Of a stretch of 64,000 nt of DNA, positions 35,932 to 47,117 are shown one piece after another. The first letter of the stretch is position 1. Every line of letters starts with the position of its first letter. This DNA is from Promethearchaeota archaeon. Lineage in GTDB: Archaea > Asgardarchaeota > Lokiarchaeia > Sigyniarchaeales > SOKP01. The notes beneath the pieces are model-generated. The model did no database searches, was not told the origin of the DNA, and was given only the letters and a program-made list of their open reading frames with translations. The translations under genes and the position numbers were made by a program. The stretch lies in NCBI GenBank assembly GCA_016839555.1, contig JAEOUA010000007.1, positions 262,398 to 326,397 on the forward strand, written 5' to 3'.

Positions 35932-37716
35932 ATGTCAGATCAAGAATGGCATGTTGATGAAAACAAAGCATGGTTTAAAAAATGGTGGCCTGATGAAGTC
36001 CCAAAAAATATGAAATTTGAATCGCTTTCTTTAGGTGAATTTTTTGAGAGACAGAGGAAAAAATATGGAAAAGAAAATATAATGTGGTTTCTTGAAACAT
36101 TCATGACTTATAATGAAGCTGGAATGCACATAGATTCATTAGCAACTGCTCTTGATGATTTAGGTTTAAAAAAAGGTGATGTTGTTGGGTTATTATTACC
36201 TAATAGTTTTCAATACGTAATCAGTTTTTATGCTTGCGCTAAAATAGGAGTTATACCTACTGGAATAAATCCTACTTATAAACCACTTGAAATTTTACAT
36301 CATATACAACTCACAAATGCAAAAGCTTTAATTATTTTAGATGCGCTATATGAGGTTTTAGTTAAACCTATAATATCTAAAACAAATGTAAAGTTCATAA
36401 TATCTACTAACCTCGTTGATTTAGCATCAGGGCTTTCGGGATTTATTAAGTTTCTTGGTAAACTAATAGGAAAAATTCCAAAAGGTAAGGTTGATTTTAA
36501 GAGGACTTATGATTTTCTTGAGTTATTAAAAACACCAGCAAAACTTCCTTATGTAGGATTTGATCCCAAACAGCATTCAGCAACCTATATAATGACAGGT
36601 GGAACCACGGGAGTACCAAAAGCAACTAATTTAACGCATTTCAATGTCGTTTCAAATGCATTACAATGTGTTGCATGGCTAGGTGGAGAATCTCCTGGAT
36701 TTGCAGACCTAGGTGTTCTGCCTCTTTTTCATAGTTTTGGAATGACTGCTGTTATGAATGCATGTATTGGCTTAGGAGGCTGGATGATGCTCTTTCCCCG
36801 ACCGCCTGAAACAGAAGAATTGGTTAAAACGATTGAAAAATTACCTGCTCCCGAGGGTTTAGCATATGTGGGTGCTGAAATTCTCTTTAAACGATTGGCA
36901 GAATTTCCTGATTTAGGTAAATATAATATCATGGGAAAGATAAAAAAATGTATATCTGGAGCAGGACCTTTACACGCCCCCGTTCAAGAAAAATTCCAAA
37001 AAAATACTGGTGGGAAAATTGTTGAAGGATATGGTCTTTCGGAAGCTAGTCCAGTAGTAAGTTCAGGAAGTCTTTTCGGCGATAGTCCTTTGGGAAATAT
37101 TGGGATGCCAATCCCGGGGACGGATTGGGAAATTTTTCAAACGGATGCAGAAGATTTAAGCGATGGACCTATAGCAGATGGTCTTCCCGGTTCAAAATAT
37201 GGTGAAGAAAATACGGGAGAAATATGTGTTTGCGGTCCTCAAGTAATGAAAGAATATCTAAATAAACCAGAAGAGACAAATGCAACACTTCAAGCATGGG
37301 ATGGCAGAATCTGGCTTCGAACAGGAGATATCGGATTTATGCATGAAGATGGGTTAATCACGATTCGAGACCGTAAAAAACAGTTGATTAAAATGGCAGG
37401 TCATTCGGTCTTTCCGAAAGAGGTTGAAGAAATGTTAATGAAAAACGAGGCAGTGAACGAGGCAGCCGTTGCTGGACTTCCTGACCCAGAAGGTAAAGTA
37501 GGTGAAATTATTAAAGCATGGGTAGCATTAGAACCTGATTATGTAGGAAAAATTACTGAACAAGAATTAAAAGCATGGGCTGAGAAGAATGTAACAAAAT
37601 GGAAGGTACCAACTTTAATTGAATTCATCCCCGAAGTTCCTAAAAGTGTGCTAGGAAAAGTAGAAAGAAGAGCTTTGCAAGAAGCTGACCCTCTCTATAA
37701 GGAAAAAAAGGAGTAA
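35932..37716 (+). CDS. Long-chain fatty acid--CoA ligase (AMP-binding enzyme)
   Basis: MTGGTTGVPK, LPLFHSFG, EGYGLSEASP, RTGDIG, DRKK, PKSVLGK. Confidence 0.93.
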   Translation: MSDQEWHVDENKAWFKKWWPDEVPKNMKFESLSLGEFFERQRKKYGKENIMWFLETFMTYNEAGMHIDSLATALDDLGLKKGDVVGLLLPNSFQYVISFYACAKIGVIPTGINPTYKPLEILHHIQLTNAKALIILDALYEVLVKPIISKTNVKFIISTNLVDLASGLSGFIKFLGKLIGKIPKGKVDFKRTYDFLELLKTPAKLPYVGFDPKQHSATYIMTGGTTGVPKATNLTHFNVVSNALQCVAWLGGESPGFADLGVLPLFHSFGMTAVMNACIGLGGWMMLFPRPPETEELVKTIEKLPAPEGLAYVGAEILFKRLAEFPDLGKYNIMGKIKKCISGAGPLHAPVQEKFQKNTGGKIVEGYGLSEASPVVSSGSLFGDSPLGNIGMPIPGTDWEIFQTDAEDLSDGPIADGLPGSKYGEENTGEICVCGPQVMKEYLNKPEETNATLQAWDGRIWLRTGDIGFMHEDGLITIRDRKKQLIKMAGHSVFPKEVEEMLMKNEAVNEAAVAGLPDPEGKVGEIIKAWVALEPDYVGKITEQELKAWAEKNVTKWKVPTLIEFIPEVPKSVLGKVERRALQEADPLYKEKKE

Positions 37717-37789: not shown

Positions 37790-38611
37790 TTAATCTATTT
37801 CTTTTTTTGGTGGTAAAGGTATAAATTGACTTGTTCGTCTCCTATATTTGTCATATTCACTATCTCCTTCAAATCTTTTATTTATTAAACGAACACCAGA
37901 AACATTTATGATCATATATGTAATTATTATTGGTCCAAATATGGTAATAAATCCGAAAGGAATCACAAGAGACACTATATATAATCCCCACCATTGTGTT
38001 ACTTCACCAAAATAATTAGGATGCTGAGTATTACGCCATAATCCCTTATCAAACACCTTTCCTTTATTAGCTGGATCATTCAAAAATCGATATAGTTGAA
38101 TATCTCCGATAGTCTCGTAAAGAAAACCAAGTATCCATACTAAACTACCAAAGATTAAGGTTAAAGTACTTAAAGAAATCAAGCTATCTAATGGAACATC
38201 ATCATTAACATTTATAAATGACACAGGAAACACAACCAAGAAAATAATTAAACCTTGAAAAAGGTAAATTCGAAATAAACTATTAATAAGCACTTTGTTC
38301 CCCCATCGCTCTCGCATATTTTGATATCTTTTATCCTCACCTTTACCCCAATTTCTTATTAAGACATAATTAGATAATCTTATCCCCCATATAGTTACTA
38401 AAATAGTAACAATTATTTGCCTTATACCGAAAGTACCCTTTAAAAGCAAAGTTGACCATGCGACCAAAATAAATCCCCATCCGTAAAATACATCCATTAT
38501 AGAATTATCCTTTTTTAGTGATCCCACAATAAAGGCGATAAGTAAAAAACCTAATAAAAATAATCCAGTCCATCCATATATTTGCAAAATTTCAATTACC
38601 GAATCTTCCAT
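37790..38611 (-). CDS. DUF1295 / steroid 5-alpha-reductase-like membrane protein
   Basis: DNSIMDVFYG, GEDKRY, ETIGDIQL, GLWRNTQHPNYFGE. Confidence 0.88.
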   Translation of the reverse strand: MEDSVIEILQIYGWTGLFLLGFLLIAFIVGSLKKDNSIMDVFYGWGFILVAWSTLLLKGTFGIRQIIVTILVTIWGIRLSNYVLIRNWGKGEDKRYQNMRERWGNKVLINSLFRIYLFQGLIIFLVVFPVSFINVNDDVPLDSLISLSTLTLIFGSLVWILGFLYETIGDIQLYRFLNDPANKGKVFDKGLWRNTQHPNYFGEVTQWWGLYIVSLVIPFGFITIFGPIIITYMIINVSGVRLINKRFEGDSEYDKYRRRTSQFIPLPPKKEID

Positions 38612-38933: not shown

Positions 38934-39746
38934 CTATTTACTCATATTATATTTATTCATAAAAAATTTGAATTTTTCTGGGTTATTAAGAAAAGGCTCT
39001 AAATGATCTTCAAAAAATCTATTTTTCTTAAATTTTTTAGCAGGAACACCAGAATATATCCATCCTTCTTCTAATTTTTGGTTAACGGTTGTAGTAGACC
39101 CAGAGACTAAAATACAGTTTTGCCCAATTTTCGTGCCAGGCATTACAATAGAATGCGCCCCAATAATTACATTATCCTTGATAATTGTTTTTCTAATAAT
39201 AAATAGATTACCCGTGATAAGTGCCGATTGCACGATACTCCCTTGACCTATTATTATATTTTTTCCAAATTCAATGAATTCTGTATCAACCCATCCTTCA
39301 AAAAGAGAATTAGAAAATTTGGTTTTCACTCCAAATATTTTAAGGCAAATATTATTCATAAATGGAAAAGGTAATTTATGAGCAAGCCATATAGGCCATT
39401 TCTTGATAGTATTTCGAAGACTCCAATAGCGAAAATCTTTATTATTTTCATCTCTGAGGAACACTCCTTCTCTGGGCTTATGGATTAGATTTGCAAAGAT
39501 TAATAAGATTTTTGCGAAAAATAAAGATATTAAAATGATTGAAATATACATCAAAACTATCAGAAAAGGAAACAATAATATAAAATAGAGAAGTGTATCA
39601 AACAAGAAATTATAATATACCCAAAATTCAAATTGAACTATGAAAAGACTTACCCAAAACAAGAAAATATAGAATATAATATATTTCTTTTTTGCCAAAA
39701 TATTACTAGTAAAGGGTCCAACTTTTAATGCTGCCGGTGTTGAAAT
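38934..39746 (-). CDS. Membrane-anchored left-handed beta-helix (hexapeptide repeat) protein, type C, copy 2 (possible ATT start; ORF track start 39755)
   Basis: 2 TM, HKPREGVFLR...YW, hexapeptide repeats (IEFGKNIIIGQGSIV, IKDNVIIGAHSIVMPGTKIG), C-terminal YSGVPA. Confidence 0.85.
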   Translation of the reverse strand: MSTPAALKVGPFTSNILAKKKYIIFYIFLFWVSLFIVQFEFWVYYNFLFDTLLYFILLFPFLIVLMYISIILISLFFAKILLIFANLIHKPREGVFLRDENNKDFRYWSLRNTIKKWPIWLAHKLPFPFMNNICLKIFGVKTKFSNSLFEGWVDTEFIEFGKNIIIGQGSIVQSALITGNLFIIRKTIIKDNVIIGAHSIVMPGTKIGQNCILVSGSTTTVNQKLEEGWIYSGVPAKKFKKNRFFEDHLEPFLNNPEKFKFFMNKYNMSK

Positions 39747-39757
39747 TTTTATCACCT

Positions 39758-40675
39758 TTACTTATTATTCTCTTCGGTATCAGTAATATCTTGATCTATA
39801 TTAATCTCTTTAATTACTTTATATTTCCTATTTTCATCGACGTCCTTTTTATGAATAAATCCGTTTCTTTCTTCAGCATATTTATTTGGTTTTAATTTGG
39901 AGACAGGATTGCCAAAATATACCCATCCATGATCTAATTTTTGGTTATAATGAGTAGTTGAAAAAGCACCAATAATCGTTTCTTTGCCTACTTCTGTTCC
40001 TGGCGCGATATTAGAAACCCCACCGATAACAGTATAGTCCTCAAATCTTATCTTTTTAATGATTAGATATTTACCAAGAATCATCGAGCTCATAACTACT
40101 GCGCCTTGACCGACAGTCACCTTACGCCCTATTTCAATGAATTCTATATCTACCCAAGAATCAAACATATGACTTGATAAATGTACTTGTACACCAAACC
40201 ACTTAAAACCCCATGTATCAATCCAAGGTAAAGGATTATTATTCATAACCCATAATACTAATTTTTTCAATTGAATTCTTAAGCGCCAAAATTGATAATC
40301 TTTATTATCTTTTTCAATCTTAAAAACTCCTTGCTTTGGTTTATGTATTAAATTCAGTATAATTAAGAATAATTTTCCAAACACAGCAATTCCAAAGGCA
40401 ATTATAAAAAAATTAATTAAAATTGCTATAGGGATTAATATAATTTTCACAAATATATTTTGAATAAAAAGGATATAATTATACCAAAAAGCGACTATTA
40501 TAAAAAAAGTAATCCAAATTATTGGGATATATAATATCAGAAATCTTAAATCTATTTTATTTATTGCACTTGTAGTAACGAAATCGATCTCAAATTCTGA
40601 CTTTTTTCCCACTTCTAATATTTCAAGAAGCTTTGAATTTAAATCTCTTCTCTTATATTGATCTCTATTTATCAT
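39758..40675 (-). CDS. Membrane-anchored left-handed beta-helix protein, type B, copy 2
   Basis: IDFVTTSAI, 2 TM, HKPKQGVF...FW, IEIGRKVTVGQGAVV, YFGNPV. Confidence 0.85.
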   Translation of the reverse strand: MINRDQYKRRDLNSKLLEILEVGKKSEFEIDFVTTSAINKIDLRFLILYIPIIWITFFIIVAFWYNYILFIQNIFVKIILIPIAILINFFIIAFGIAVFGKLFLIILNLIHKPKQGVFKIEKDNKDYQFWRLRIQLKKLVLWVMNNNPLPWIDTWGFKWFGVQVHLSSHMFDSWVDIEFIEIGRKVTVGQGAVVMSSMILGKYLIIKKIRFEDYTVIGGVSNIAPGTEVGKETIIGAFSTTHYNQKLDHGWVYFGNPVSKLKPNKYAEERNGFIHKKDVDENRKYKVIKEINIDQDITDTEENNK

Positions 40676-41570
40676 TATTTACTTTCTTTTGGTTTATTCT
40701 CTTATTTTTAAAATTTTCTGCCTTTTTTAAATCATCTTCGGAAAGATCTAAATACTTCATAACTTTTCTTGGAAAAGCTCTCCTTAAAGGCACCCCAAAG
40801 TAATAGTTATTTCCTTTAAGAACATTATGTTTAGTAGCTCCCGCCATAGGTAATAGATAGGAATCATCATTTATTTCTACGCCTGGAGCTATACAGTTTA
40901 ATGCGGAGGTGGTGACATTATCTCCAACTTTTATTTTAAAATATGAAATATCTCCAAAGATTCCATCGACTGCATGTGAACTAAATCCAGAATTAACTCC
41001 AATATAGGAATTTTCACCCATTATTATCCCCTTATCTGCTCCAAATTGCTCTTCAATAACACTTCCTTTACCAATTTTATTACAACCTATAAAATTATAA
41101 AGCCAAGTAATAAGCCATGGAAACGGACCCTTATTAAAAGCATGTTTGGGATACTTTATTAAAAAACTACGAATATGATATAAATTTAAAGTTTTACTGG
41201 GGATATTTCTGGGAATTATCCCGTTTTTTGAAGGAGAAATTCTTTCCGTAATTTTCCACCAAAATTTCGTGATAGCCGCTACAAAGAATAAATGAATAAA
41301 ATATGAAACTATTAATGCAATTGGAAAGCAAAGCGAAACTATAATCCCTTCTAAACTACTAAAAATTATAATAAAACTTTCAGCATTCAAAAAATATGGA
41401 ATATATAGAAATTGTATATACATCCACATAATGATGCCGGGAAAGAGCCATGATAAGAGATATGTTGTGCCAAAGCCTAATGCATACCAATGAAATTGAA
41501 GATTTATTTCATGTTTTTCAATGGTACTTTCTGAATCCTTAATATCATTCAGTTGACTGTTTTGAGACAT
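40665..41570 (-). CDS. Membrane-anchored left-handed beta-helix protein, type A (His-containing), copy 2
   Basis: 2 TM, GIIPRNIPSKTLNLYHIRSF, KIGKGSVIEE, SSHAVDGIFG, YFGVP. Confidence 0.85.
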   Translation of the reverse strand: MSQNSQLNDIKDSESTIEKHEINLQFHWYALGFGTTYLLSWLFPGIIMWMYIQFLYIPYFLNAESFIIIFSSLEGIIVSLCFPIALIVSYFIHLFFVAAITKFWWKITERISPSKNGIIPRNIPSKTLNLYHIRSFLIKYPKHAFNKGPFPWLITWLYNFIGCNKIGKGSVIEEQFGADKGIIMGENSYIGVNSGFSSHAVDGIFGDISYFKIKVGDNVTTSALNCIAPGVEINDDSYLLPMAGATKHNVLKGNNYYFGVPLRRAFPRKVMKYLDLSEDDLKKAENFKNKRINQKKVNNDK

Positions 41571-41785
41571 TTTTTTTTGAGATACTTATTATTTTAAAAA
41601 ATATTATTTGTGAATCTTTTTTTTCTTCTAAATAACGCTTAAAATATTTAATATAATCTTTATAATTTTATTATAAATAGTAAATAAAAGGCTTATGCTT
41701 ATAAAAAAAAGATATTTATTTATAAAAAATCCCTATAAACGGGATTATTTTATATCAAATAATGTTAAATTTTGGGTATAATTGA

Positions 41786-42670
41786 CTAAACTTTATTTAT
41801 TTTTTTTTCTTTCTTTTCTAAGTATTCACGATATTCGTCTTGATGCTTTCGATAATATTCTCGATACATCTCTTCAAGTCTCTCTTCAGATGCAACTTTA
41901 TATCTAATTTTTTCTTCTAATCCATCTTCAAAAAATCTATTTTTCTTATATTTTACTGCGGGAATTCCATGATATATCCATCCGTCTTCTAATTGTTGCT
42001 CTACTGTTGTAAGCGACCATGAACTTAAAACCGCATTTTTTCCTATATGGGTTCCGGGCATTACTACGGAATGAGTACCGATTCTTACATTATCTTCAAT
42101 AATTGTTTTTCTTATAATTAATAAATTTCCTATAATCACAGAAGATTGGATATGGGATGCTTGACCAACTACTACATTATCTCCAAATTCTATGAATTCT
42201 GTATCCACCCATCCCTCAAAAAGAGAATTAGAAAATTTGGTTTTTACCCCAAACATTTTAAAACAGATATTATCTAAAAAAGGAAAAGGGAATTTATGTG
42301 CTAACCATACAGGCCATCGTTTTATAGTATTTCGAATACACCAGTATCGATAGTCTTTATCTTTTTTATGTCTCAAAAATGTACCTTCTCTCGGTTTATG
42401 TAAGGCATTTGCAAGAATTAATATACCTTTAGCAAAAATTAATGAGAATAATACAAGTTCTACATACCAAAGGAATGTAAAAACAGGAAGATAAATATAA
42501 AAATGAATAGGGCGATCCCAGCGCCAGGCCCATTTCCAATAAAGCCAAAATTGTAGTAAAATAGGCAAAAAACTTATCCATATCAAAAAAATATATAATA
42601 AAATATACCGCTTTTTAGGTAAAATTGTTGGTGTAAATGGCCCGACTCTCATGCTTGTAGGTACAGACAT
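41786..42670 (-). CDS. Membrane-anchored left-handed beta-helix protein, type C, copy 1
   Basis: Close paralog of 38934..39746 (identical FGVKTKFSNSLFEGWVDTEFIEFG). Confidence 0.85.
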   Translation of the reverse strand: MSVPTSMRVGPFTPTILPKKRYILLYIFLIWISFLPILLQFWLYWKWAWRWDRPIHFYIYLPVFTFLWYVELVLFSLIFAKGILILANALHKPREGTFLRHKKDKDYRYWCIRNTIKRWPVWLAHKFPFPFLDNICFKMFGVKTKFSNSLFEGWVDTEFIEFGDNVVVGQASHIQSSVIIGNLLIIRKTIIEDNVRIGTHSVVMPGTHIGKNAVLSSWSLTTVEQQLEDGWIYHGIPAVKYKKNRFFEDGLEEKIRYKVASEERLEEMYREYYRKHQDEYREYLEKKEKKINKV

Positions 42671-42721
42671 TTTTAACTCAACTAATAAGTTTTTTTATAT
42701 TTTATATTTTGAATTATTTTC

Positions 42722-43684
42722 TTAGTTTTGATCTTCATCGTTCTTACTAGTTACTTTTTCTTTTAATTCTTCTTCAATATTAACCTTATGTTTCACGATT
42801 TTTTCTTTATCATAGTCTACATGCTTTTTTGAGATTACATCTCTTCTTTCTAATGCATATTCATTTGGCTTTAATTTTCGAGCGGGTATCCCAGCGTACA
42901 CCCATCGAGGTTCGATCATCTGATTAAACAATGTGCACGTCGCGGCTCCAGTTACAGATTCCTTTCCTACAATTGTACCCGGGGCAATTGTAGATTCTCC
43001 CCCAATTACAGTATGATCATCAAGGATTACTTTTTTAATAATAAGATACTTCCCAACCACCATTGAACTCATTACTACTGCTCCTTGACCGACCATCACC
43101 CTCCTACCGAACTCCACAAATTCAATATCGCACCATGCATCTAAAAGATGACTAGAATTATCTATATTGATACCAAACCATTTAAAGGCAAACACATCCA
43201 CCCAAGGGAGTGGCCAATTGTTCATCAACCAAATAACAAGTTTCTTAATTTCTATTCGTAAACACCAGAATTCAAAATCATTATCCCCTAATTCTGCTTT
43301 AAAAATACCTTCTTTTGGTTTGTGAATCAAATTTACAATTATTAAGATTAATTTACTCATTAAAAGACATCCAAACGTGAAGATTGTAAATATGGCAAAA
43401 ATATGTGCGGGAAGTAGACAGAAGAATATTACTAAATCGAAAGTCTGTTTTCTATAGAAGTAAATTAATAAATTTCGATCAAAAAAAGTCCAGAAATAAA
43501 GAAGGCTCATGATTCCCGAAATCCAGATGATTGGGATATAAACAATGAGAAATTTTAAATTGATCCGAGAGATGGCGCTCGAGGTCACGAAATCAATGAT
43601 ACATTCGTCGTCATCCTCATCCTTAGCGGAGTTTTTATTTTCATTATTATCTTCATTATCAGTTAATTCTTTACCATTATTCAT
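42722..43684 (-). CDS. Membrane-anchored left-handed beta-helix protein, type B, copy 1
   Basis: Paralog of 39758..40675 (IDFVTSSAI, VGQGAVVMSSM, GKYLIIKK). Confidence 0.85.
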   Translation of the reverse strand: MNNGKELTDNEDNNENKNSAKDEDDDECIIDFVTSSAISRINLKFLIVYIPIIWISGIMSLLYFWTFFDRNLLIYFYRKQTFDLVIFFCLLPAHIFAIFTIFTFGCLLMSKLILIIVNLIHKPKEGIFKAELGDNDFEFWCLRIEIKKLVIWLMNNWPLPWVDVFAFKWFGINIDNSSHLLDAWCDIEFVEFGRRVMVGQGAVVMSSMVVGKYLIIKKVILDDHTVIGGESTIAPGTIVGKESVTGAATCTLFNQMIEPRWVYAGIPARKLKPNEYALERRDVISKKHVDYDKEKIVKHKVNIEEELKEKVTSKNDEDQN

Positions 43685-43691
43685 TTCTTAT

Positions 43692-44591
43692 TCACTTCTT
43701 TGAGTTTTGTTTATTGTCTTCATATTTTTGATATAGGTTATCTGCTTTTTTAAGATCCTCATCGCTAACTTTTAAATATTCTTTTAATTTTCTTTTAAAT
43801 AGCCGACGTATGGGCATCCCGAAATAATAATAATCTCCTTTATTTTCAGTAAATTTTAAGGCTGCCCCTAAAGGAAAAATATAACTATTATCTTTTAATT
43901 TAGTTCCCGGTGCTATTGGGGCTTCTGGGCCTACTGTACAATTATCTCCTAATCTTATCTTGAAATAATATACATTTCCGAAAATGCCCTCTACGAGGTG
44001 GCTTGCTAAAGCTGCATTTGGAGCCAGATAGCAATTTCTCCCCGTATCTACAAATTTTTCTCCTAAAATTTCTTCTTCAATAGTAGTTCCTTTTCCATAA
44101 TTTGTCGCTCCAATAAAGTTAAAAACCCAGGTAAACAACCAAGGAAAAAGGCCCTTCATAACCGCATTTTTAGGATATTTTAAGATAAAAGAACGGATAT
44201 GATACAAATTTAATGTCTTACTGGGGATATTTCTGGGAATTATACCTTCTTTTGAAGGTACAATTCTTTCACTTACCCAATACCAAAATTTAGTAACCAT
44301 TGCAGCTATAAGTATATGCAAAATATAAGAAAATATAAGGACTAATGGAAAACTTAGAAATGATATGAGGGGGTCTAATTCTGTAAAAAGCGTTATAAAA
44401 TTGTCTGTTTCTAAACAATAGGGTAAGAAGTAGAAAAAAATATAAAAGAAAAATAATAATCCGGGAATCGCCCAAGAGAGAAAATAACAGGAGATAAATC
44501 CCAGAGCGCACCATTGAAATTTCCAAGATGGCTCTTCTTTTGTTATCTCTTCTTGGTCTTTTTCTGGCTTCAGTTTTTTACTTTTATTCAA
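43692..44591 (-). CDS. Membrane-anchored left-handed beta-helix protein, type A (His-containing), copy 1
   Basis: Paralog of 40665..41570 (GIIPRNIPSKTLNLYHIRSF, ASHLVEGIFG). Confidence 0.85.
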   Translation of the reverse strand: MNKSKKLKPEKDQEEITKEEPSWKFQWCALGFISCYFLSWAIPGLLFFFYIFFYFLPYCLETDNFITLFTELDPLISFLSFPLVLIFSYILHILIAAMVTKFWYWVSERIVPSKEGIIPRNIPSKTLNLYHIRSFILKYPKNAVMKGLFPWLFTWVFNFIGATNYGKGTTIEEEILGEKFVDTGRNCYLAPNAALASHLVEGIFGNVYYFKIRLGDNCTVGPEAPIAPGTKLKDNSYIFPLGAALKFTENKGDYYYFGMPIRRLFKRKLKEYLKVSDEDLKKADNLYQKYEDNKQNSKK

Positions 44592-44870: not shown

Positions 44871-47117
44871 ATGACGAAAAATAAAAGTTCTTTTACCTTA
44901 TCCGATCTGTATCCAAAATATGTAATTAATAGCAAAGGTGAGAAAAAATCCTTTGATGAGTCTAAAATAGCTTCGGTCTTAAATAAAGAAACTGGATTAG
45001 ATATGCATATCGCGGAAAAAGTAGCTGAAGATGTATTAAGAAAAATTATTGGATTAGGGGTTGAGGAAATAACTACTAATTATTTAAGGGAATTAGTATG
45101 CGTTGAATTAACCCAGCGTGGAATGAATAAATATCGGAATCTATTTGCTCGAGCTATCAACTTGGAAGATATCAGTTTCAAGTTGGATAAATCATTTGTA
45201 GAACAATATAAAGCAAAAAATCCCGATTGGGGTCCATTGGGCTATTTTACCTATAAAAGAACTTATGCTCGAATCATCGAGGAAGAGAATCGAAAAGAAG
45301 AATTTTGGGAAACTCTTAAGAGGGTAGTAGAGGGGTGTTATTCTATCCAAAAAGAACATTGTAAAAAATTAAGCCTACCATGGATTGAAGAAAAAGCACA
45401 GAAATCTGCACAAGAAATGTGGAAAAAGATATGGAACTTTAAAATGACCCCCCCAGGAAGGGGTTTTTGGATGATGGGAACAGAATTCATAAATCGTCAT
45501 GGTTCTATGGCACTTAATAATTGCGGTTTTGCCTCTACGGCTGATATTGATTTAAAATACTCAAAAGCATTTGAATTTGTGATGGACGCTCTAATGCTAG
45601 GAGTAGGAGTGGGATTTGATACAAAAGGGGCGGGAAAACTCACTATTAAAAAGCCTCAAGAAGGTCATTTTGATTATACTATTCCAGATAGTAGAGAAGG
45701 ATGGGTGGAAGCCCTTAGATTAATATTAGAAGCTTATTTCATCGGAAAACAAATTCCAAAATATGATTTTTCTGAGATTCGACCTACAGGGGCACCAATT
45801 AGAGGGTTTGGCGGTATTGCTTCAGGACCAGGCCCCTTAAAAGAAATGCTTAAAGATATTCAACAATTATTAGAAAAAAGAATTGATCAACCAATTACAT
45901 CATTAGATATCCTTGATATTATGAATTATATTGGGAGATGCGTTGTTGCCGGAAATGTTAGAAGGTCTGCCGAAATTGCTTTAGGAGATCCAGCAGATTT
46001 CGACTTTATTACCAGTAAACAAGATAAGCATAAATTATATTCTCACAGATGGGCTAGTAATAATAGTATTTTTGCTTATAAGGGATTAGATTATTCTTTT
46101 ATCGCAGATCAGATTGCGGTGAATGGCGAACCAGGTGTTTTCTGGCTGGAAAATGCGAGAGCATTCTCACGAATGAAAGAAGCTCCAGATTATAAAGATA
46201 AAAAGGCAGCTGGGGTAAACCCGTGTGGAGAACAGACTTTGGAATCATTTGAATTGTGTTGCCTTGTAGAAACCTTTCCATCTCGGCATGAATCTTATGA
46301 AGAATATCAGGAAACACTAAAATATGCGTATCTCTATGCAAAATCAGTCACTTTAGTCAACACTCATTGGAAAGAAACTAATGCTGTGATGCTAAAAAAT
46401 AGAAGAATGGGAATATCTCAAACAGGAATAATTGAAGCGTTTGTAAAGCATGGAAGACACACTATGTTAGAATGGTGTGATAAAGGTTATAATTATTTAA
46501 AACAATTAGACGAAACCTATTCAGACTGGCTATGTGTTCCTAAGTCCATTAAATTGACCACTATAAAACCCAGCGGGACCGTGAGCATTTTAGCAGGAGT
46601 AACTCCAGGGATCCATTATCCTCATTCAGAATATTATATCCGAAGAGTAAGAGTTTCCAGCAATTCCGATTTAATACAACCTTTAAAAGAGGCAGGATAT
46701 CCGATATATAATGATAAATACTCAAATAATTCAGTTGTCGTGGAATTTCCTATTCATGAAGAAAATTTCGATCGAGGAAAAGATCATGTATCTATTTGGG
46801 AGCAAGCAGAAAATGCTGCAGCATATCAAAAATATTGGTCCGATAATCAAGTTTCTATCACAATTACCTTCAAACCAGAAGAGGTGAAAGAGATTCAATA
46901 TGTGCTTGAATGCTATGAAGACAAACTAAAAGCTGTGAGCTTTTTACCTCTCAAGGAACATGGCTATGAACAAGCCCCTTATGAGAAAATCACCAAAGAA
47001 GAATATGAAAGAAGAATATCAGAGGCGAAACCTCTTAATTTAAAAAAGACAGCAGATAAAGCCATAGGTGAAAAATTTTGCGACAGCGATACCTGCGAAT
47101 ATGATTATACTCAATGA
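44871..47117 (+). CDS. nrdJ: Class II (adenosylcobalamin-dependent) ribonucleotide reductase with N-terminal ATP-cone
   Basis: N-terminal VINSKGEKKSFDESKI ATP-cone; TYKRTYAR, PPGRG, LNNC, GNVRRSA, NPCGEQ, TTIKPSGTVS; C-terminal CDSDTC. Confidence 0.92.
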   Translation: MTKNKSSFTLSDLYPKYVINSKGEKKSFDESKIASVLNKETGLDMHIAEKVAEDVLRKIIGLGVEEITTNYLRELVCVELTQRGMNKYRNLFARAINLEDISFKLDKSFVEQYKAKNPDWGPLGYFTYKRTYARIIEEENRKEEFWETLKRVVEGCYSIQKEHCKKLSLPWIEEKAQKSAQEMWKKIWNFKMTPPGRGFWMMGTEFINRHGSMALNNCGFASTADIDLKYSKAFEFVMDALMLGVGVGFDTKGAGKLTIKKPQEGHFDYTIPDSREGWVEALRLILEAYFIGKQIPKYDFSEIRPTGAPIRGFGGIASGPGPLKEMLKDIQQLLEKRIDQPITSLDILDIMNYIGRCVVAGNVRRSAEIALGDPADFDFITSKQDKHKLYSHRWASNNSIFAYKGLDYSFIADQIAVNGEPGVFWLENARAFSRMKEAPDYKDKKAAGVNPCGEQTLESFELCCLVETFPSRHESYEEYQETLKYAYLYAKSVTLVNTHWKETNAVMLKNRRMGISQTGIIEAFVKHGRHTMLEWCDKGYNYLKQLDETYSDWLCVPKSIKLTTIKPSGTVSILAGVTPGIHYPHSEYYIRRVRVSSNSDLIQPLKEAGYPIYNDKYSNNSVVVEFPIHEENFDRGKDHVSIWEQAENAAAYQKYWSDNQVSITITFKPEEVKEIQYVLECYEDKLKAVSFLPLKEHGYEQAPYEKITKEEYERRISEAKPLNLKKTADKAIGEKFCDSDTCEYDYTQ

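Follow-up and report, generated by a model that had tools for sequence, protein, structure and literature searches.

The stretch of DNA analysed here, which we call the window, comprises 64,000 nucleotides from a Promethearchaeota archaeon (GTDB lineage Archaea; Asgardarchaeota; Lokiarchaeia; Sigyniarchaeales; SOKP01; GenBank assembly GCA_016839555.1, contig JAEOUA010000007.1, positions 262,398 to 326,397), and its subject is a run of six genes on the minus strand that form two copies of a three-gene A-B-C cassette for membrane-anchored left-handed beta-helix (LbH) proteins. Cassette 1 begins with A1 (44591-43692, 299 amino acids), a transmembrane (TM) hairpin of two helices followed by a helical linker and an LbH domain, which bears a candidate catalytic residue, His198 (codon 44000-43998), and is probably the catalytic subunit. 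It is followed by two subunits that have no histidine at that place, namely B1 (43684-42722, 320 amino acids), with a serine at the catalytic column within an MSSM motif, and C1 (42670-41786, 294 amino acids). Cassette 2 repeats the arrangement with the histidine-bearing A2 (41570-40665, 301 amino acids; His199 codon 40976-40974) and the non-histidine subunits B2 (40675-39758, 305 amino acids) and C2 (39755-38934, 273 amino acids), the last of which falls in a separate, shorter clade of C proteins. The first-pass annotation, made from the letters of the window, had described six co-oriented genes in two cassettes, and the open reading frames (ORFs) do lie exactly at the positions it gave. Within cassette 1 the intergenic gaps are 7 nt (A1-B1) and 51 nt (B1-C1), while in cassette 2 A2 overlaps B2 by 11 nt and only 2 nt separate B2 from C2. 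Between C1 and A2 lies an AT-rich spacer of 215 nt, and about 40 nt past the C1 stop the sequence reads as a terminator-like hairpin (AATCCC-loop-GGGATT) with a T-run (41746-41724, minus strand), which suggests that the cassettes are likely two transcription units.

All six proteins were originally described as having two TM helices, a PxxG linker and a hexapeptide-repeat beta-helix ending in YxGxP, and hydropathy, AlphaFold2 (AF2) models, the Pfam Hexapep family and family alignments all bear this out. Two long hydrophobic helices open each module in both the hydropathy plots and the AF2 models, and the linker (HKPREG, HKPKEG or PSKEG) and the terminal YxGxP are kept in the family alignments. 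Hexapep matches all six proteins, with scores above the 27-bit cut-off for C1 (42.4), C2 (34.9) and B2 (28.9) and under it for A1, A2 and B1. Scans of the six against Pfam and NCBIfam gave hexapeptide/LbH matches only, in agreement with the earlier statement that they carry no fused adenylation (A) or thiolation (T) domains of a non-ribosomal peptide synthetase (NRPS). By pairwise BLASTP, A1 and A2 are 49% identical (E 9e-110), B1 and B2 51% (E 4e-101) and C1 and C2 61% (E 4e-122), against 35-38% between B and C and 21-25% between A and either of them. Each protein is thus nearer to its counterpart in the other cassette than to its cassette neighbours, far beyond chance, and the view of A, B and C as distinct subfamilies stands. 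The three are nevertheless homologous to one another over TM2, linker and LbH, with an hhalign probability of 98.9%.

C is the most conserved of the three families, with a mean column identity of 73%. Since C1 and C2 fall in different well-supported clades of the C tree, both of which have orthologues in other genera, the duplication is ancient; judged by this tree, the two cassettes are old paralogues. We also noted that long-type C orthologues mostly end in an acidic tail, (E/D)(W/Y)(E/D)DFDDGFNI, placed after a Lys/Glu-rich helix in the C alignment; the tail resembles a short linear docking motif, and C1 and C2 of the window are without it.

Relatives of C number in the hundreds at 60-90% identity, every one of them labelled as an Asgard metagenome-assembled genome (MAG). 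A scan of species-representative genomes yielded 168 loci. Our analysis covered 78 distinct ones, and essentially all of these show the order A-B-C, or C preceded by an AB fusion, with frequent overlaps of 4 nt between the genes. One frequent layout is AB (~609 amino acids), then a CxxCxxCC gene on the opposite strand, then AB (~625 amino acids) and C (~316 amino acids). The conserved triad that the first-pass annotation thought worth surveying is therefore real, and A, B and C do not behave as independent genes. A breadth across Asgard genomes, which the NCBI labels of some MAGs had suggested, did not hold. We sampled 300 genomes of the phylum, balanced by GTDB and at least 80% complete, and scored presence at E<=1e-60 for the C family and E<=1e-40 for the A family. 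We found the C family in 89/91 genomes from the window's GTDB family, in 8/9 of a sister family and in 1/200 of the other 28 families, and the corresponding counts for the A family are 89/91, 9/9 and 1/200; the two genomes of the window's family that lack C are the same two that lack A. We accordingly rejected an Asgard-wide distribution, as nearly all carriers fall in one family and its sister, and the ABC system is characteristic of a single Lokiarchaeal GTDB order. No publication about this Asgard system turned up when we searched the literature.

Two side observations concern this distribution. MAGs titled Thor-, Odin-, Hod- and Hermodarchaeota (loci L019, L032, L034, L037, L045, L051, L053, L063, L067, L069 and L077) carry C proteins 62-70% identical to those of the window, and as GTDB-based sampling finds the system almost solely in one family, the NCBI titles probably disagree with the GTDB classification. 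In the sister family, an A-like gene is followed by one C/B-like gene of 432-443 amino acids, which replaces separate B and C genes (G196:C1:1116061-1117906 and G291:C1:4138672-4140389); this pair might represent a version of the ABC system with two components.

Gene fusions speak most directly to how the subunits relate to each other. Natural A-B fusions occur at locus L003 (585 amino acids), in protein P0128 and as 86 AB ORFs among the loci; C-A fusions were found in P0122 and in P0124-P0127, and complete C-A-B fusions in P0121 (805 amino acids) and P0123 (797 amino acids). All of them obey the cyclic order A>B>C>A, and no B-A, A-C or C-B arrangement was seen among the fusions found. When a natural C-A-B fusion was modelled with AF2 from a 30-row alignment, it gave one compact body (mean predicted local distance difference test 81, predicted template modelling score (pTM) 0.83) built from a unit that occurs three times and consists of a TM helix pair, a short strand, a further two helices and LbH coils, with low-confidence linkers between the units. 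C1 modelled alone folded poorly (pTM 0.50). A prediction of the A+B+C complex scored 0.84 and was undiscriminating, given that a control in which an unrelated protein replaced B scored 0.83.

A second line of evidence comes from the active site. In a phmmer alignment, read by counting residues, His198 of A1 aligns with His115 of Escherichia coli LacA, the catalytic general base. This His198 is invariant in the A-family alignment, and among modules cut from the loci the catalytic column holds His in 124/124 A modules and Ser in 119/119 B modules; in the 91 C modules it is Ala (58), Ser (31) or, in the rest, Met or Thr, with His in 0/91. These patterns support, as far as alignments go, a catalytic A with B and C as degenerate partner protomers, and the restriction of the histidine to A points to one active site per complex. 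Related proteins show similar distributions of the residue. In P0255, a Pls-type NRPS, the catalytic-column His stands in module 3 only; in the stand-alone triple-module proteins P0188, P0213 and P0269 it stands in module 2 only, which is the place of A in C-A-B; and the single-module relatives P0224, P0236 and P0249 all have it.

Considering kept order, cyclic fusions, co-occurrence of A and C and the single-histidine pattern together, we regard the membrane heterotrimer that the first-pass annotation proposed for each cassette as supported. One might instead suppose that the six genes encode independent homotrimeric membrane acetyltransferases, clustered by nothing other than tandem duplication. 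This would accord with the solved LbH acyltransferases among the matched entries, which are homotrimers, and with the existence of single-module relatives that keep the histidine (such as P0224). However, the catalytic His is missing in all 210 B and C modules, a fixed gene order, cyclic-order fusions and strict co-occurrence of A and C are not expected of independent enzymes, and the fused C-A-B folds as a single body, which together make separate homotrimers most improbable in our estimation. The degeneracy of two protomers out of three could also be taken to mean that the complex has no catalytic role at all and is a membrane scaffold or a six-TM export pore, comparable to the gamma-carbonic-anhydrase-like (gamma-CA-like) heterotrimer of complex I, whose subunits do appear among the PDB sequence matches. 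Yet the His of A is invariant in all 124 modules and has a counterpart in Pls, an enzyme that cannot form its polymer without the C-terminal domain (PMC10522769), and the polar motifs show strong family-specific conservation. A purely structural role thus seems quite unlikely.

The resemblance to the Pls/PosA enzymes, which had been proposed for the window proteins from the outset, proved to be sound at the level of the module and sub-threshold at the level of the curated model. TIGR02353 is the top NCBIfam match for B and C, with A1 and A2 giving no match to it in the NCBIfam scan; the matches cover the LbH part only, however, and their scores (B1 27.9, C1 46.5, B2 29.4 and C2 43.2 bits) are far from the curated cut-off of 423.1. 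Sub-threshold matches of this kind are also unspecific, being present in 13/14 control genomes, and for that reason we discarded them as proof of kinship with Pls. Far better evidence is provided by P0255, a protein of 1713 amino acids with a TIGR02353 score of 471 bits and an amino-acid adenylation domain, hence a genuine Pls/PosA-type NRPS. The C-family profile matches it at E 1.6e-16, and the match spans C positions 24-257, hence TM, linker and LbH, the whole module; hhalign probabilities against Pls modules lie between 94.8 and 96.4% overall (95% for C and B against module 1, 96% for A against module 3). HMM scores lean slightly towards A as the counterpart of Pls module 3 and, for modules 1 and 2, do not tell B and C apart. 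To our knowledge the Pls/PosA C-terminal domain has neither a solved structure nor defined catalytic residues, and our copy of the PDB yielded no solved structure of it by sequence or by fold search. A published model of PosA shows modules of the same make-up as those of our C-A-B model, from the pair of TM helices through a strand and two helices to the LbH, and polymer formation needs the C-terminal domain of Pls (PMC10522769). We conclude from these comparisons that the window proteins and the Pls polymerisation domain are homologous at the level of the module and alike in design. The window proteins are not members of the Pls/PosA family, because the TIGR02353 score, the A and T domains and the single chain are all wanting.

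A second system of [2TM+LbH] proteins, with two genes, lies elsewhere in the same genome (G000:C12:233060-234547; L004:6067-7740, minus strand). Its 271-residue protein has His at the catalytic column and the adjacent 244-residue protein has Phe there; the pair scores 54-70 bits on TIGR02353, above the window proteins, and an ADP-forming acyl-CoA synthetase-like gene (482 amino acids) is found about 1 kb away. P0224, the single-module relative from Nanoarchaeota, likewise adjoins ACD-type genes.

Two neighbours of the cluster bear on its possible substrates. Downstream of C2, at a distance of 322 nt, lies a gene for a DUF1295 membrane protein of the steroid-reductase/ICMT-like superfamily (37790-38611, minus strand; Pfam E 2e-67), which adjoins a C2-type cassette in L009, L010, L011, L067 and L083 as well as in the window, so placed that its product may be a partner of cassette 2. 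Beyond it, convergent with the cluster, a FadD-like AMP-forming acyl-CoA ligase (35932-37716, plus strand; Pfam AMP-binding) scores 351 bits, under the cut-off, on the NCBIfam model for long-chain-fatty-acid--CoA ligase. In L007 and L008 its orthologue comes immediately after C in the same orientation; in L009-L011 and the window the ligase gene is convergent behind the DUF1295 gene. In L007 and L008, the nearest relatives (C 82-83% identical), genes for an alpha/beta-hydrolase and an enoyl-CoA hydratase are inserted between B and C, together with an epimerase in L008. Going by this gene context, the ligase could possibly supply an acyl-CoA donor.

The likely nature of the donor would separate the ABC system from a peptide-forming enzyme. 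Neither a PP-binding domain nor an ACPS/Sfp phosphopantetheinyl transferase (PPTase) was found in the genome to which the window belongs, which is 92% complete, and PP-binding occurs in 5/41 genomes of the family that are at least 90% complete. Given how seldom carrier domains occur in the family, a Pls-like, carrier-borne donor is unlikely; acyl-CoA, the usual donor of LbH enzymes, seems the likelier of the two on these genomic grounds. The aminoacyl or polyamide chemistry suggested in the first-pass annotation is likewise weakened by the lack of both PP-binding and PPTase. This touches on a further alternative, in which the system would be a carrier-dependent poly(amino acid) or peptide polymerase whose A, B and C stand for Pls C1-C3 and receive an aminoacyl thioester in trans. 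Module-level homology to a genuine Pls/PosA NRPS, the same single-His architecture and the ANL-superfamily adenylating enzyme that adjoins the cluster in the window's lineage would all suit such a polymerase. That enzyme, however, scores as a fatty-acid CoA ligase rather than as an amino-acid adenylation domain, the 28-46 bits on TIGR02353 compare with a cut-off of 423, and PP-binding and the ACPS/Sfp PPTase were not found in the window's own genome, with PP-binding in 5/41 family genomes when ABC is in 89/91. A polymerase of this type is, in our opinion, very unlikely.

In our judgement each cassette probably encodes a membrane-anchored heterotrimeric acyltransferase with a single active site, a reading that builds on the observed gene layout, sequence homology, conserved order, fusions, His distribution and modelled fold. 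A, B and C of one cassette would assemble, presumably in a 1:1:1 stoichiometry, into a pseudo-threefold trimer whose three hairpins place six TM helices in the membrane. Three MAT/GAT-like LbH domains would stand side by side, presumably on the cytoplasmic face; K/R-rich stretches ahead of TM1 and past TM2 fit an in-out-in topology, and a cytoplasmic location of the LbH domains fits with it. The one active site would be formed at the interface between A and a neighbouring protomer, and B and C would be non-catalytic protomers that serve as scaffold or shape the substrate. The donor would most likely be acyl-CoA, which has its pantetheine arm in common with the carrier domain of Pls, and the acceptor might be a membrane-associated or exported molecule, such as a lipid, a glycoconjugate or a polymer. 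We would place little trust in any one specific substrate. The two cassettes probably differ in specificity, cassette 2 being tied to the lipid-type membrane enzyme of the DUF1295 family.

Several observations weigh against this single-site heterotrimer as we propose it. The alignment between A and LacA reflects weak sequence similarity (E 0.002), and B and C have invariant histidines of their own elsewhere (B H179, C H125 and H200). AB-AB-C layouts, with two AB fusions and one C, are present in many genomes, so that dedicated 1:1:1 cassettes are not universal, and the complete genome G301 has its intact C about 1 Mb away from its AB genes. The link to acyl-CoA ligases is limited to a few closely related genera, and the most widespread neighbours, CxxCxxCC genes (55/78 loci) and genes for a zinc-dependent alcohol dehydrogenase (39/78), have no obvious place in an acyl-CoA scheme; both of these genes are absent from the window.

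With regard to G301 (CP070831.1, locus L029), its AB-AB locus (C1:1920544-1925193) ends in a truncated C of which the first ~138 residues are left, the intact solitary C is found at C1:2934842-2935756, and the same chromosome holds several cassettes of C-A plus B. The CxxCxxCC protein (PF03692, 131-138 amino acids, putatively Zn/Fe-chelating) has its gene flanked by the AB genes, and on the strand opposite to them, in those 55 loci, for example L021, L025, L036, L037, L051 and L063, and the window's own genome has only distant homologues of it, on contigs C5 and C10. On the other side of the cluster, divergent from A1, a class II (B12-dependent) ribonucleotide reductase (44871-47117, plus strand) also adjoins the split-type ABC cassette in 14 loci; this adjacency is probably a matter of conserved synteny rather than of function. 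Where the window has its 215-nt spacer, L009 (3084-3557) and L010 (8995-9468) have a gene for an AN1-type zinc-finger/HEAT protein of 157 amino acids between the cassettes.

One may go further and propose that ABC is a carrier-independent, single-site membrane acyltransferase family that uses the acyl-CoA made by the neighbouring FadD-like ligases to acylate an archaeal membrane lipid or an exported surface polymer, possibly with the transfer coupled to passage through the six TM helices, much as may happen to the polymer of Pls. We consider this extended scheme rather unlikely, but if it were true, Lokiarchaeia would possess several isoforms, each specialised, of a machine for lipid or envelope modification that has so far gone undescribed, and the bacterial Pls domain would be an NRPS-captured offshoot of a much wider [2TM+LbH] superfamily with "one histidine per trimer". 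Even apart from it, the system would be of interest for two reasons. The Pls/PosA C-terminal domain makes the commercially used epsilon-poly-lysine, and a split version would be tractable for structural and mechanistic work, as three small subunits can be expressed and mutated separately; the pattern of one His per trimer or pseudo-trimer also yields a testable prediction for the His of Pls module 3. For Asgard biology, ABC is a putative membrane enzyme that is near-universal in one Lokiarchaeal order, multi-copy and highly conserved (C subunits 60-90% identical), and its links in places to acyl-CoA and lipid-type enzymes make it a candidate for some modification of membrane or envelope that has yet to be described.

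Among known systems, MAT, LacA/GAT and VCA0836 offer the best solved structural matches for the cytoplasmic part of the module. A MAT/GAT chain of ~185 residues, its N-terminal helices included, superposes on residues 642-797 of the C-A-B model (VIA Z 13-14, ~150 aligned residues, root-mean-square deviation 2.7-3.0), and each module is therefore a TM hairpin joined to a complete MAT/GAT-like acetyltransferase domain. These enzymes are soluble and homotrimeric, with three active sites per trimer and a sequence identity to ABC of 12-20%, whereas ABC has a two-TM anchor on each protomer and three differing protomers, of which one has the His. A looser parallel is found in plant and protist mitochondrial complex I, which contains a gamma-CA-like LbH heterotrimer. 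It too consists of membrane-attached LbH proteins with degenerate protomers, and gamma-CA, complex-I subunits included, is among the weak NCBIfam and PDB sequence matches of the window proteins; it belongs, however, to another LbH subfamily, is without TM hairpins and has another proposed chemistry. The parallel is an analogy only, and would be one of design and not of descent.

Closer relatives are the stand-alone [2TM+LbH]x3 proteins P0188, P0213/P0278 (~680 amino acids) and P0269 (with an N-terminal SDR), which resemble ABC in having no A or T domains and in carrying the His in the middle module, as in C-A-B. Their TIGR02353 scores of 168-184 bits are intermediate. They differ from ABC in being single polypeptides in other genomic settings, with modules that do not sort into A, B and C. 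P0213 (a bacterial protein of 680 amino acids, L085:7001-9043) is flanked by genes for an EryCIII-like glycosyltransferase, a GMC oxidoreductase, an SDR, an RmlA-like nucleotidyltransferase and epimerases, and this sugar-nucleotide and glycosyltransferase cluster hints that carrier-less members of the superfamily may acylate glycoconjugates.

In overall design ABC matches Pls/PosA itself, where a module of a two-TM hairpin, a strand, two helices and an LbH of about five turns is likewise repeated three times to give a six-TM pseudo-trimer, and where a LacA-type His is present in one module of the three. The differences lie in what surrounds this core. Three genes (or AB plus C) encode in ABC what is one chain in Pls, the adenylation and thiolation domains of Pls are absent from the window proteins, and carrier proteins are mostly absent from the genomes that have ABC; furthermore, the His-bearing module is the middle one, A, in the C-A-B fusions and the third one in Pls. 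We therefore place ABC in the LbH acyltransferase superfamily as a split, carrier-less and probably heterotrimeric relative of the domain by which Pls polymerises.

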